A stretch of 64,000 nucleotides of DNA from Micavibrio sp. TMED2 (GTDB lineage Bacteria; Pseudomonadota; Alphaproteobacteria; TMED2): assembly GCA_002168225.1 (NCBI GenBank), contig NHBH01000001.1, positions 93,955-157,954 of the forward strand, given 5' to 3'. The translations under genes and the position numbers were made by a program. The notes under the pieces were generated by a model. The model saw only the letters and a program-made list of their open reading frames with translations, was not told the DNA's origin and did no database searches. Below, piece after piece: positions 19,084 to 23,076 of the stretch (its first letter is position 1; the number at the start of each line of letters is the position of its first letter).

Positions 19084-20145
19084 ATGACCCATCTTACCAA
19101 GACTTTGAAAGCCAAGGGCATGGCTGCATTCGCTATTGGCGGATTCATGGCCGCCAGCCTTGCGCTGACCCCGGTTGCTAACGCAGCTGATGAACTGCCC
19201 GGCGAGGGCAAGAGCGTTAAAATGGCGCGCGCCACATGGGATACCGGTTATTTCCCGGCTGAAATCTATCGCAAGGCACTGCAGGAACTCGGCTATGACG
19301 TCGGTGTCCCGAACGACCTGCAAAACCCGATCTTCTATCAGGCGGTTGGCCTCGGTGATGTCGATCTCTGGGTCAATGGCTGGTTCCCCGGCCACGGCTC
19401 ATACCGTGATGCCTTCGAACCGGGCGCTGAGCTCGTCGGCTATGTCGCCAAGGGCGGTGCGCTGCAGGGTTATCTGGTGGACAAAAAAACCGCCGATGAA
19501 CTGAACATCAAGAGCTTCGAGGATTTCAAGCGTCCGGAAGTCAAGGAAGCCTATGACAGCAACGGCAATGGCCTCGCTGAAATGGTTGCCTGCCCACCGG
19601 GCTGGGGCTGTGAAATCGCGATTCAGCACCATTTCAAGGAGTATGGCCTCGAAGGTAATGTTGAGCTGATCAAGGCCAGCTATTCCGCCTCCATGGCCGA
19701 TGCGATTGCCAAATATGAGAATGGCGAGCCGATCTTCTTCTACACCTGGACCCCGAACTGGGTCGTTGACGAGCTGAAACCCGGCGAAGATGTCGTCTGG
19801 ATCGAAGTACCGTTCCTGACCCTGCCGGAAGAACAGGCCGATGATATCAGCAAGGCCGAAGTGGCCGATGTTGTGGGCTGTGTCTCCAACCCGTGTAAAA
19901 TGGGTCACCCGGCCAATGACATTCGTCCGGTTGCCAATACCGAGTTCCTCGAGGACAACCCGGCAGTCCGTCGCCTGCTTGAGGTCGCCAGCGTTCCGCT
20001 TGCCGACATCAATGCCCAGAACGCCAAAATGTTCGCCGGCGAAGACAGCCAGGAAGATGTCGAGCGCCACGTCAATGAGTGGATTTCAGCCAATCAGGAA
20101 ACCTTCGACAGCTGGATCGAACAGGCCAAAGCCGCAGCCATGTAA
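19084..20145 (+). CDS. proX: Glycine betaine/proline ABC transporter substrate-binding protein
   Basis: Signal peptide; ACPPGWGCE and FYTWTPNW typical of ProX. Confidence 0.92.
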   Translation: MTHLTKTLKAKGMAAFAIGGFMAASLALTPVANAADELPGEGKSVKMARATWDTGYFPAEIYRKALQELGYDVGVPNDLQNPIFYQAVGLGDVDLWVNGWFPGHGSYRDAFEPGAELVGYVAKGGALQGYLVDKKTADELNIKSFEDFKRPEVKEAYDSNGNGLAEMVACPPGWGCEIAIQHHFKEYGLEGNVELIKASYSASMADAIAKYENGEPIFFYTWTPNWVVDELKPGEDVVWIEVPFLTLPEEQADDISKAEVADVVGCVSNPCKMGHPANDIRPVANTEFLEDNPAVRRLLEVASVPLADINAQNAKMFAGEDSQEDVERHVNEWISANQETFDSWIEQAKAAAM

Positions 20146-20170: not shown

Positions 20171-20204
20171 ACGGGGCGTCGCATAACTGCGCGCCCCGTT
20201 TTTT
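20171..20204 (+). terminator. Rho-independent terminator of proVWX
   Basis: ACGGGGCG...CGCCCCGT stem followed by a T-run; the IS is inserted immediately downstream. Confidence 0.85.
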
Positions 20205-20240
20205 ATTGGGGGGAGCTATATATTTAACTAGCCTTCCCAA

Positions 20241-20564
20241 TCAGTCGGTGGGCTTTTTCTCAAGGCAGTGCTTGTAAGAAATATCTACTTTGCTCTCGTC
20301 GGTACGAACCACCCAAAAACATCTAGTGGAAAACGGAGGGGCATCATCCGGCGGTGTATTGACTTCAAAACCCGCAATGCCGCTACCCACCTTCTCTACC
20401 CTCTCATCATGTCGATCAAGAAGTGCGGTCAGGTCTGCCGCATCGGCTTGGTTTACTCGCTCCCCAATTTCGTATCGGTTTAGCATTGCTTTGAAGAAGG
20501 CTGTTGCATCACCAGCCTTGTCAAAAGTTCGAGTTCTTAAGGCTATCTTCCTCGCTTTTGCCAT
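20241..20564 (-). CDS. DCL (DUF3223) family protein, IS passenger
   Basis: LNRYEIGERV...LLDRH...EKVGSGIAGFEV...RCFWVVRTDESKVDISYKHCL matches the DCL pattern. Confidence 0.82.
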   Translation of the reverse strand: MAKARKIALRTRTFDKAGDATAFFKAMLNRYEIGERVNQADAADLTALLDRHDERVEKVGSGIAGFEVNTPPDDAPPFSTRCFWVVRTDESKVDISYKHCLEKKPTD

Positions 20565-20574
20565 AACGTGCCAC

Positions 20575-21612
20575 CTATTGCTCGATTAGTTTTGGAGAAA
20601 GTCTCTTGATAGCTAGCTGAGATACTGAGGGTGGGATTTCCTTTTTCCCCTTGAGATAGTTCTTAAACTTGCCGCCATCCAAGTAGACATCTTGAAGCCA
20701 ACGACGATACTCCCCCAGTGCATCAAGAGGATAGCAGTTGGCGATCTGGGGATTTGACTTGGCTTGCGGGTGATCTTTTGGGTAGCGATGCGGGAATTTT
20801 TCACGATCCCCAAAGCGGCTTTCGAGATCGTTTGCATCCCAATACTTTGCCCAATGCTGGCCAATGGAAATATCAGGAACCATCTTTTCCCCGATTTCAG
20901 CGCCAGCCATGATCAACTCATAAATCACAGTATGAGCCTCATTAAAGATGCTGAAATACCCACTCGGGGCGCTTTGATGGTTTAATTCGATGCGTTCATG
21001 CCATTTGCGAAGTGGCTCAGCTATGCCGCCAGTTGGGTCATATCCCACCTGACTGTAAATCATTTCTTTTAGCTTAGACCCGGCAAGTAGGCGAAAGTTC
21101 TTTCTGGCTTCCGGGCGGACATTGGAGCCTGCATCCAGTGCATAGTACTCCAGAACTGCCAAACAGATTTCTGCCGGGTAACAGAAGTGAACAACGCCCT
21201 TGTGTGGCACTTCGATATGGGGCTGCGCAAAATCCGCACCAGCTTCTAAAAGAATGCCCTTGATCGTAGAAATTCTGGGTTTTTGAACAGACTCTTTCCA
21301 CTGGCTGCTGATAGTGCCGATATGGGCGTTTTGAACACCGCACAAGGCCGCAAGTCCACGCTGGTTTAGGTATGGAGTGCCATCAGACAGGACACCCATG
21401 CCGATGCCCTCTATGTCGCGCTCTATGTCTATTCCAAGGTCAAAAGTGCCTTGATCAGAGGTGATTTTCTTCCTACGCCTAACAGGCGCTAATTTGTTGA
21501 TTTTTCTATCCATCGAGGTGATTTCCTTCCCGTAAACTCGTGGCGAAATTGCGCCCACTACCTCGTCAAAAGTCGCGTCGATAGGATCAATCTTGTCTTT
21601 TTTGTCAGCCAT
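20575..21612 (-). CDS. bstA: BstA-like phage-defence (abortive infection) protein, IS passenger
   Basis: Colinear blocks shared with BstA as I recall it: GMGVLSDGTPYLNQRGLAALCGV, YPAEICLAVLEYYALDA, ARKNFRLLA, PSGYFSIFNE, VPDISIGQHW, YP...PQ...YPLDALGEYRRWL. Alternative start at ATG 21513. Confidence 0.82.
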   Translation of the reverse strand: MADKKDKIDPIDATFDEVVGAISPRVYGKEITSMDRKINKLAPVRRRKKITSDQGTFDLGIDIERDIEGIGMGVLSDGTPYLNQRGLAALCGVQNAHIGTISSQWKESVQKPRISTIKGILLEAGADFAQPHIEVPHKGVVHFCYPAEICLAVLEYYALDAGSNVRPEARKNFRLLAGSKLKEMIYSQVGYDPTGGIAEPLRKWHERIELNHQSAPSGYFSIFNEAHTVIYELIMAGAEIGEKMVPDISIGQHWAKYWDANDLESRFGDREKFPHRYPKDHPQAKSNPQIANCYPLDALGEYRRWLQDVYLDGGKFKNYLKGKKEIPPSVSQLAIKRLSPKLIEQ

Positions 21613-22537
21613 TGATCAGCCCTTTGTAGGTCAGTCGCTTATCGGCCATGCGGTCGATTGTCATTTCAATGAAGTCCATGGTGCCAATCTGAGCCGTGTT
21701 GTGACGGAATCAGAACTCCCTCACATAGCGGTGCAGATGCTCGGCGCTCATGTAGTGATAGATACCGATGTAACCGCGCTTGAGCAGGGACCAGAAGCTT
21801 TCAATGCCGTTGGTATGCGCCATATCGCGAACGTATTCGCCAGAAGAGTGATTGATGGTGATGTGATTGTAGCCTGCGCTTGACAGGCCAATACAGCCGC
21901 CGTGCGTGTCTGTGACTATGGTTGCCCCTGTCTTGCAGTGATCTTTCACAAAGTCGGTAAGTGTCTTTGCCTTCGTGTTTTCAACCACAACGGCGCGCAC
22001 TTCACCATGCTGGTCACGAACGCCCACAACCGCAGTTTTACCAACGGTGCCGCGACCAGCGCGGAGTTTTTTGCTGGCGTGTTTATTGCGCTCTTTGCCG
22101 CCGATGTATGTTTCGTCAATCTGCACCTGACCATCCGTGTGGTCGTCGCGGTCTTTCAGCCATGTCTCGCGGATACGCTGAGCGAGAAACCATGCGGTTT
22201 TCTGAGTTACGCCAAGTTCGCGCGCCATCTGGGTGTTAGGGATGCCCTTACGGGCACTGGTGAGCATGAAAATGGCCAGAAGCCACTTTTGCAAGGGAAG
22301 TCGGCTCTCGGCCAGCACAGTACCTGTACGTACGCTTAAATGCTTGCGGCAATCTTTGCAGCGGTAAGGCATAGGTTTGTGGTCTTTGCACTCAACCACG
22401 TTGACAGACCCGCAATGCCCGCAAATAGCTTCGCCGTTCCAGCGTTTTGCCTCAAAGAACTTGCGCGCAGCTTCTTCGTCAGGGAATTTGGCGAAGAACT
22501 CAAATGTCGAAAGTGTCTCTGGCTTGTTTTTGCACAT
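21605..22537 (-). pseudogene. IS1595-family DDE transposase with premature stop
   Basis: Zn finger CGHC/CKDC, HTH, and catalytic QIDETYIGG, TD and NGIESFW motifs. TGA at 21710-21712 interrupts REF*FRHN, and the frame continues 34 codons (..KRLTYKGLING) to a second stop at 21605-21607. Confidence 0.9.
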
Positions 22538-22565
22538 GGGCTTTGCTCCTTACAAAACTCTTGTA

Positions 22566-22609
22566 ACTTAACTAGCCAAAGTTCGCAAGCTATTTTTGGC
22601 TAGTTAAGT
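22566..22609. repeat. Perfect 15-bp inverted repeat at the IS end upstream of the transposase
   Basis: ACTTAACTAGCCAAA (22566-22580) / TTTGGCTAGTTAAGT (22595-22609), 14-nt spacer; an internal inverted copy of the terminal IR. Confidence 0.9.
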
Positions 22610-22629
22610 ATATAGACCCTTTTTTTGGC

Positions 22630-23076
22630 TCATCCCCGTCGGTCGATGGGGGAGTCCATGACAATGTATGAGGTGATGCCGGAGACGCCGGGGACGGTGC
22701 CGAGGACCTCGGTATGGAAGCGTTTGTAATCGGCGAGGTCGGCTGCCTGTACCCGCAGCATGTATTCGATCGTACCGGTAGTGTTGTGACACTCAAGCAC
22801 TTGCGGCACATTGCGCATGTGATCCTCGAACCGCTTCTGGTCCTCCTTGGTATGGCGCGAGAGCTGCACCGCGACATAAGCGATAAAACCTGCCCCCAGC
22901 TTGCCGTGGTCGAGTACTGCACGATAGCCCTTGATAATGCCGCTCGCCTCCAGCGCCTGCACCCGGCGCAGACAGGCAGAAGCGGACAGCCCAACCAGAC
23001 CGGCCAGTTCGGTATTGGTCATGCGCCCGTCACGCTCAAGAGCTTGCAATATTTTCCTATCAATACCGTCTATCAT
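22630..23076 (-). CDS. Lrp/AsnC family transcriptional regulator
   Basis: IDRKILQALERDGRMTNTELAGLVGLSASACLRRVQALE; divergent from LysE. Confidence 0.95.
   Translation of the reverse strand: MIDGIDRKILQALERDGRMTNTELAGLVGLSASACLRRVQALEASGIIKGYRAVLDHGKLGAGFIAYVAVQLSRHTKEDQKRFEDHMRNVPQVLECHNTTGTIEYMLRVQAADLADYKRFHTEVLGTVPGVSGITSYIVMDSPIDRRG

Follow-up and report, generated by a model that had tools for sequence, protein, structure and literature searches.

Prophages, satellites, integrative elements and large Tn7-like transposons are known carriers of phage-defence genes. A 64,000-nucleotide (nt) stretch of the genome of Micavibrio sp. TMED2 (contig NHBH01000001.1; hereafter the window, to which all coordinates given without a locus name refer) raises the question of whether a simple insertion sequence (IS) can carry them too. 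Positions 20210-22620 of the window, about 2.4 kb, contain exactly three co-oriented genes on the minus strand, encoding a transposase, a homologue of the abortive-infection protein BstA and a small DUF3223 protein. We analysed this locus together with its relatives in other genomes, and conclude that it is very probably a defective three-gene 'transporter' IS of the IS1595 family.

Anatomy of the element

We analysed the ends of the unit and its site of insertion. The cores of its terminal inverted repeats (IRs), at 20216-20233 and 22598-22615, match at 17 of 18 positions, and this core has just two occurrences across the 64-kb window, where shuffled sequences give an expectation of 0. The full extents, set by comparison with related elements, are 24 and 23 nt: IRR, at the cargo end (20210-20233), reads GGGGAGCTATATATTTAACTAGCC, and IRL, at the transposase end (22598-22620), reads AGGGTCTATATACTTAACTAGCC as its reverse complement. 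The same type of IR, GGGGnCTATATACTTAACTAGCC, also bounds the closest related elements (class A, see below), for example those of loci L010, L104 and L014. Directly outside the IRs lie the two copies of a target-site duplication (TSD), TTTATTGG at the DUF3223 end (20202-20209) and TTTTTTGG at the transposase end (22621-22628), which agree at 7 of 8 positions with one mismatch; relatives have perfect 8-bp TSDs at equal distance from their IRs. The GC content is 0.47-0.55 within the element versus 0.57-0.63 in the flanks. The element inserted into the T-run in the terminator of a proX-like gene (19084-20145); on its other side it directly precedes the stop codon of lrp/asnC (22630-23076, minus strand). 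The genes around it are housekeeping genes (proVWX, lrp/asnC, lysE).

The transposase frame (21605-22537, minus strand; 310 codons) was identified by family hidden Markov models (HMMs), matching PF12760 (Zn_ribbon_IS1595, E=2e-08), PF12762 (DDE_Tnp_IS1595, E=1.6e-38) and NCBIfam NF033547 (IS1595, E=1.5e-54; score 185 bits, cut-off 75). The zinc ribbon is formed by C39/C42/C60/C63 and the catalytic residues are D141, D209, E246 and K253; a Shine-Dalgarno sequence, AAGGAG, can be read at 22546-22551 (minus strand). The protein is 86-88% identical to the intact transposases (308-310 amino acids, aa) of L010 and L104, and intact relatives as a whole measure 304-313 aa. As truncated here, it ends after 275 aa (22537-21710) at a premature in-frame TGA, codon 276 (21710-21712, minus strand), which in the relative L001 is a serine codon (TCC); 34 more codons follow before the natural stop, TGA at 21605-21607. 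Because the 34 C-terminal residues lost in this way (FRHNT...KRLTYKGLING, including the RLTYK motif) form a tail conserved across the three lineages of transposases introduced below, the transposase of the window copy is probably inactive. The four catalytic residues form a D-D-E-K pattern, as would fit the ISNwi1 subgroup, for which ends of the form GGnnnnTAT are also a criterion; those of the element read GGGGAGCTAT and AGGGTCTAT.

The natural transposase stop overlaps the beginning of the bstA-like gene (ATGGCTGA; 20575-21612, minus strand), which begins 8 nt before it and has a candidate ribosome-binding site (RBS), AAGGG, readable in the sequence. Its 345-aa product, a predicted abortive-infection protein, matched the PADLOC BstA profile from position 3 to 286 of 292 (E=5.4e-111) and, in tblastn, the BstA of phage BTP1 with 41.6% identity over 89% of the length (E=1e-62). 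PF26567 (BstA_C) is the precomputed Pfam domain on all close homologues of the protein; Pfam and NCBIfam scans gave no match for the window protein itself, with a Pfam set that lacked or missed PF26567. An AlphaFold2 model had a mean predicted local distance difference test score (pLDDT) of 69.6, with about 88 in the N-terminal domain. Foldseek found no significant fold match for the model in the PDB (the best was DdrC, E=0.05), and neither did a sequence-profile search of the PDB, while the N-terminal domain gave weak matches in BFVD to KilA-N, Bro-N and antirepressor proteins (best E=1e-3). The residues that are invariant across 27 BstA homologues are kept in the window protein.

The third gene (20241-20564, minus strand; 107 aa) follows bstA after 10 nt. 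It has a Shine-Dalgarno-like AGGTGG (20571-20576, minus strand) that overlaps the bstA stop and ends 6 nt before the ATG (20564-20562), and its own stop is 7 nt from the IR. The product matched Pfam DUF3223 (E=1.9e-21), PADLOC HamC over its full length (E=4.8e-37) and the protein of the nuclear magnetic resonance structure PDB 2K0M (E=1e-19); its homologues carry the NCBI family name 'DCL family protein', and residues invariant across 8 of them are kept in the window. The DUF3223 domain is also the C-terminal DeCL domain of the largest subunits of plant Pol IV and Pol V, and a domain of this type adds to the RNA-chaperone activity of a Tetrahymena La protein. Because of these occurrences, nucleic-acid binding by the window protein is plausible.

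A preliminary description of the locus, made from the letters alone, had proposed an IS1595 element with passenger genes, in which terminal IRs surround three co-oriented genes of lower GC content than the flanks, a BstA-type passenger starts within the natural transposase stop, and the 'DCL' gene lies 10 bp past bstA and 7 bp from the IR, the whole being outside any prophage. The above results agree with it throughout: the IRs are unique in the window, the open reading frames were confirmed, the profile match to BstA is full-length, the neighbours are housekeeping genes and the carrier is an IS. The family assignment follows from the HMMs, the IRs and the 7/8 TSD of the window copy, together with 20 perfect TSDs around relatives and the intact element L104, to which we now turn.

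bstA-bearing IS1595 elements in other species

A BstA profile scan of one genome per GTDB species yielded 73 loci, nearly all from Alphaproteobacteria, about one third of which lie inside IS1595 elements of two lineages. In class A (18 of the 73) the IS1595 transposase is directly upstream of bstA, co-oriented with it and abutting or overlapping its start, as in the window. Class B adds 7-9 loci in a second IS1595 lineage, in which the transposase is convergent with bstA and about 40% identical to that of the window, and the IRs read GGCGATTATATAyTTGACAAACC. Six class B elements (L050:5367-8887, L062:5917-9153, L109:3908-7341, L057:4922-9003, L017 and L031) all have perfect 8-bp TSDs, and class B cargo includes DUF3800, a Panacea pair or DUF3223.

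In total, 23 elements were delimited by their IRs, some of them reached via DUF3223 homologues. Perfect 8-bp AT-rich TSDs were found around 20 of the 23 (for example TAATATTT, ATAATAAA, TTGATAAT, TTTGTTTA, AGACCAAA and CTTTTTTT). The TSDs flank entire cargo-bearing units; therefore the passengers move along with the transposase. The smallest form consists of transposase and bstA in 2.1 kb (L016, L018). L104 has the gene order of the window, with an intact 308-aa transposase followed by bstA and DUF3223, at an unrelated site and within a perfect TSD, AATCTTTT. The closest BstA (93% identity) is that of L010, where a 186-nt deletion took the 5' half of the DUF3223 gene. On these comparisons, the bstA-bearing IS1595 element is a family-wide pattern and not a singular event.

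About 60% of BstA loci have no IS1595 transposase nearby. Thirteen close homologues, on IMG/VR viral contigs and without transposase or DUF3223, represent the classical prophage context. Genes of the IS-borne, prophage-type and DUF3223-linked kinds are mixed with one another in a BstA tree built by neighbour joining. We also noted two IMG/VR loci (L102:4839-6471 and L103:4839-6471) in which the gene after an IS1595 transposase encodes a distant protein that resembles BstA only in its C-terminal half (24% identity to residues 162-336).

DUF3223 as a partner of defence genes

The preliminary description had further suggested a possible two-component BstA-DCL system. Between IS1595 IRs, such pairs were found besides the window in L019 and L104 (class A) and in L109 (class B), always with DUF3223 after bstA on the same strand at a distance of 10-35 nt. 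The pair also occurs in five loci free of transposase (L025, L060, L065, L072 and L081), some of them between housekeeping genes. The recurrence of the pair, in both IS lineages and in five or more loci that have no transposase, supports that suggestion in part; the pairing is not exclusive.

The contexts of six DUF3223 homologues were looked up. Three belong to IS1595 elements with bstA and two to a third lineage of IS1595, and one has no transposase. All six genes lie downstream of a defence gene or a candidate for one, either directly or closely, and five are inside an IS1595 element. The transposase of the third lineage is about 40% identical to that of the window, and its stop is fused, through an ATGA overlap, to the gene of a Bro-N protein that matches PADLOC PDC-S13 (E=1e-97 in L111:2685-5351 and E=8e-108 in L114:3036-5350; the lineage also includes L115 and L116). 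In L111 and L114 DUF3223 adjoins the right-hand IR, and the elements have perfect 8-bp TSDs, ATAATTTT and TACTTTTT. An hhalign comparison of the BstA profile with the two PDC-S13 proteins detected no homology. In the transposase-free case (L117:3831-5315), DUF3223 follows an HTH_3 and peptidase-like gene with a match to PD-Lambda-2_B (E=2e-30), with VapBC alongside. Since the pairing with bstA is non-exclusive, PDC-S13 and PD-Lambda-2_B-like genes also preceding DUF3223, the latter seems to be an accessory that accompanies defence genes in general, and not a subunit dedicated to BstA. As judged from gene order, then, a broad set of alphaproteobacterial IS1595 elements has a predicted defence gene (BstA or PDC-S13) in a first slot fused to the transposase stop, and a variable accessory slot after it.

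We noted that class A BstA and third-lineage PDC-S13 proteins have in common a lysine-rich N-terminal leader of about 25 aa (..PIDAxFDEVV.. / ..LDIPFEEAIQ..), encoded at 21529-21612 in the window (BstA residues 1-28) and at L104:3956-4040, L114:4021-4100 and L111:3665-3740. It is absent from prophage-borne and class B BstA and has low confidence in the structure model. The leader may be a conserved junction that permits cargo to be swapped while coupling to the transposase stays.

Variable cargo and mosaicism

The modules found after bstA are not limited to DUF3223. Two of them include a membrane protein, which accompanies a SocA/Panacea antitoxin in one and an IrrE/CapP-like metallopeptidase in the other; further modules are DUF3800, an AlkB/CARF_2OG-like oxygenase and recurrent unannotated pairs of about 240 and 90 aa. 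Such a pair, of a protein of about 240-255 aa and a divergent one of about 80-100 aa, follows bstA in four elements of class A, which come from different genera (L011:5967-6936, L014:7026-8003, L019:7381-8356 and L020:7047-8001); it had no Pfam or PADLOC match in any of them, and is a candidate for a new toxin-antitoxin or defence module. The oxygenase, an AlkB-like 2OG-Fe(II) enzyme matching PADLOC CARF_2OG (E=6e-46), is carried by the class A element L039:7032-10121, whose cargo has been invaded by an apparent IS3-family element, judged from its two-ORF arrangement.

The three genes of closely related elements differ unequally. Between the window and L104, identity is 88% for the transposase and 90% for DUF3223 versus 72% for BstA; the 5' half of bstA, which encodes the DNA-binding domain, gave no blastn match (positions 1075-1558 of the element, equal to 21063-21546 of the window). 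Between the window and L105 the corresponding values are 71%, 75% and 41%. This mosaicism suggests that cassettes have been exchanged, or that the sensing domain may be under diversifying selection.

Status of the insertion in its species

Exact-protein look-ups with ProX, Lrp and BstA, for which 148 collection blocks have entries (among them Tara Oceans assemblies and the metagenome-assembled genomes GCA_002697805.1 and GCA_002724695.1), revealed the insertion in every contig read (22 contigs), always at one identical site. The full-length copies L083-L085 have the window sequence across the element, including the nonsense codon; the Tara scaffold L009 has four base differences, and every other contig read from the species has the TGA276 base too. 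Independent decay of the transposase in L009, L083 and L085 was considered and rejected, as L083-L085 are identical to the window and the break in L009 is an N-run scaffold gap. The element is fixed and single-copy in this widespread marine bacterium and probably immobile, because the transposase has a nonsense codon and the chromosomal site is a single, fixed one. The view of the locus as a self-contained cassette mobilised by an IS, taken in the preliminary description, therefore applies to the type of unit, which transposes whole, but probably not to this copy.

The predicted empty proX-lrp junction, with the 8-mer present once, reads ...CCCCGTTT-TTT[A/T]TTGG-CTCATCCCC.... Metagenome scans gave no match to it, and are uninformative because the occupied-junction control gave none either. 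The scan of GTDB representatives contained no locus with a 100%-identical BstA, though the window protein contains both search peptides. The GTDB representative of the species may thus be without the element, and a possible source of the empty site.

Relation to known systems

As Siguier et al. reportedly described in 2009, the IS1595 family includes passenger-bearing 'transporter IS', in the ISNwi1/ISPna2 '+' subgroups. Like those elements, the one in the window has a zinc-ribbon and DDE transposase, short IRs beginning with GG, 8-bp TSDs and genes unrelated to transposition inside. Unlike them, its passengers are a predicted phage-defence gene and a putative accessory, the first of which is fused to the transposase stop, the cargo is exchangeable across species, and the transposase of the window copy is truncated.

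BstA of the Salmonella prophage BTP1 acts by abortive infection, blocking phage DNA replication (Owen et al. 2021, PMC8585504). In that survey 21% of BstA homologues were prophage-independent, and its main text does not contain the words 'transposase' or 'insertion sequence'. The window protein is homologous to BTP1 BstA over its full length, at an identity within the divergence range of the homologues tested there, and is, like it, a single protein, predicted to have an N-terminal DNA-binding domain and a C-terminal BstA_C domain. It differs in having about 28 extra residues as an N-terminal leader, in being followed by DUF3223, and in its location on an IS between housekeeping genes instead of in a prophage downstream of a repressor. 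An aba element is specific to its own BstA and has a functional definition only; the equivalent region in the window is the overlap of transposase and bstA.

HamC of Hachiman type II, present in 3.8% of Hachiman systems, is a DUF3223 protein (Payne et al. 2021, PMC8565338). As with HamC, the DUF3223 of the window is a stand-alone protein of about 100 aa beside a predicted defence effector; unlike in Hachiman type II, no hamA (DUF1837) or hamB (helicase) is adjacent, the neighbours being bstA and proX, and the locus is not Hachiman. Tn7-like transposons carry anti-phage systems as cargo (Benler et al. 2021, PMC8649781), and resemble the IS1595 carriers as DNA transposons with variable anti-phage cargo between fixed ends. 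The IS1595 carriers, however, are 2-5 kb long, with a single transposase, no targeting machinery and one to four small cargo genes, the first of them predicted to be translationally coupled to the transposase. PDC-S13 is a phage-defence candidate (Payne et al. 2024, preprint, 10.1101/2024.01.29.577857). Within a sister lineage of IS1595 it fills the slot that bstA has here, and DUF3223 follows it there as well (L111, L114). Its N-terminal domain is of the Bro-N type; it has no detectable sequence homology to BstA and is absent from the window.

Singly, therefore, passenger-bearing IS1595 elements, BstA, HamC/DUF3223 and defence cargo on Tn7-like transposons are already known. What appears to be novel is a minimal IS carrying BstA, the fusion of a defence gene to the transposase stop in three or more lineages of IS1595, and DUF3223 as their shared terminal partner. 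No paper in the literature searched treats BstA and IS1595 together; 'ISNwi1' is mentioned incidentally, and an ISfinder entry with unannotated passengers is possible.

Proposed mechanism and alternative explanations

Comparison with the delimited relatives shows that a DDE transposase recognises the 22-24-bp IRs and inserts the whole unit into AT-rich DNA with an 8-bp duplication. The anatomy of the genes suggests that they would be expressed as one operon from the transposase end, in which translation of bstA would be coupled to that of the transposase, and translation of DUF3223 to that of bstA, because bstA starts 8 nt before the transposase stop and DUF3223 follows 10 nt on with its own Shine-Dalgarno sequence. 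BstA, by homology, would cause abortive infection by blocking phage DNA replication; the aba self-immunity element would not be needed here because the IS carrier does not replicate lytically. DUF3223, in view of its recurrence, would probably bind nucleic acid and tune or license the effector encoded upstream. A host would retain an IS with a useful defence gene, and the window would be the end state of this process, with the cargo intact and the transposase dead.

Several observations weigh against reading the locus in this way. Phage protection by alphaproteobacterial BstA homologues is a prediction, their identity to tested proteins being about 40%, and characterised BstA is defined by a prophage context, which this locus does not have, and by a cognate aba element. 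L011 and L018 are without TSDs. None of the contigs carrying exact ProX, Lrp or BstA has an empty site, all being occupied, and the identity of the full-length copies in the species gives no measure of purifying selection on the cargo. A simple scan of the coding (minus) strand of the element found no sigma-70-type promoter. Many IS-borne bstA genes, such as those of L016 and L018, have no DUF3223, and in L105 a Panacea toxin-antitoxin pair stands between bstA and DUF3223; some BstA proteins, at least, can therefore do without DUF3223. The divergence of BstA and DUF3223 in 8 pairs was not correlated, over an identity range too narrow to inform.

These last points would also fit an unlikely, though still appreciable, alternative, in which DUF3223 travels as a passenger of its own, functionally unconnected with BstA (for example a stand-alone defence, anti-defence or RNA-binding factor), that occupies the cargo slot by the right-hand IR, like the toxin-antitoxin pairs of sister elements. 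The slot after bstA varies and is empty of DUF3223 in minimal elements, DUF3223 stays beside the IR in L105 despite the intervening Panacea pair, in other elements it comes after non-homologous genes, and no co-divergence with BstA is seen. Mere occupation of a slot would, however, account poorly for the tight same-strand spacing of 10-35 nt with a Shine-Dalgarno sequence overlapping the bstA stop, for the presence of the pair in two IS lineages and in five loci that have no transposase, and for a defence or candidate-defence gene upstream in every context looked up; HamC of the Hachiman systems offers a precedent. We think it improbable that the BstA-like protein, and perhaps DUF3223 too, serves the transposon itself, as a regulator of transposition or target choice or as an addiction or competition factor against other mobile elements. 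Its place as the constant first passenger of two IS1595 lineages, translationally fused to the transposase stop, would suit such a role, as would the leader of class A IS-borne BstA that prophage-borne BstA lacks and the weak structural matches of the N-terminal domain to the KilA-N/Bro-N DNA-binding type. Yet no IS1595 transposase is found near about 60% of the close homologues of BstA, 13 of these homologues are in predicted viral contigs, similarly divergent homologues defend against phage when expressed alone (PMC8585504), the same slot is filled in the third lineage by the unrelated defence candidate PDC-S13, and the remaining cargo is of defence or toxin-antitoxin type.

There is equally little probability, in our estimate, that the element is a dead relic, its transposase inactivated and its cargo unexpressed or non-functional, with decay still to come. 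It would explain the nonsense codon, which interrupts the transposase frame about 100 nt upstream of bstA so that translational coupling is lost, and it would sit well with the missing promoter-like site and with identical copies that give no sign of selection. Against it, both cargo frames are full length and keep their invariant residues (27 BstA and 8 DUF3223 homologues), AAGGG and AGGTGG are plausible RBSs for bstA and DUF3223, and the insertion is in every contig read of a widespread organism listed in 148 collection blocks. A sole lesion in the mobility gene is the pattern expected if the cargo is what is kept. The preferred reading is of a defence-carrying IS whose mobility has probably been lost. 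A further-reaching version, which we put forward tentatively and think rather less likely than not to hold in full, is that alphaproteobacterial IS1595 elements are modular vehicles for defence cassettes, with a leader-fused slot for interchangeable KilA-N/Bro-N effectors and a terminal DUF3223 that all of these would need for sensing or restraint, and that also partners Hachiman and a PD-Lambda-2_B-like gene. If true, two-gene 'effector + DUF3223' systems would make up a new class, and these elements would be the first simple insertion sequences that are dedicated carriers of immunity.

An IS of 2-3 kb with one transposase and a fused defence gene would be a far smaller and more promiscuous vehicle than those through which defence genes are known to travel. 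Carriage on an IS puts such genes in ordinary intergenic DNA, outside the 'defence islands' used by most discovery pipelines, and the IS1595 family may serve as a natural catalogue of small modules, including the unannotated pairs, PDC-S13 and the DUF3223/HamC accessory. About one third of alphaproteobacterial BstA genes are not prophage-borne, which revises the view of BstA as a prophage self-immunity system. The presence or absence of DUF3223 beside bstA offers a simple genetic system for the role of DUF3223. A dead transposase with intact cargo, fixed in an abundant marine bacterium, is what domestication would be expected to look like.

Other features of the locus

Promoter and terminator scans of the element found none beyond shuffle expectation, and Rfam and tRNA scans of the window gave no matches. 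The DNA of the element had no match in PLSDB plasmids (megablast) or GenBank phages (blastn). At the transposase end, a perfect 15-bp hairpin (22566-22609, minus strand; free energy -27.6 kcal/mol, z = -3.3) is formed by the inner half of IRL and an inverted copy of it 14 nt away, just upstream of the transposase RBS, and may restrict read-through or the expression of the transposase. L001 and L004 likewise have a second, inverted copy of the IR core.

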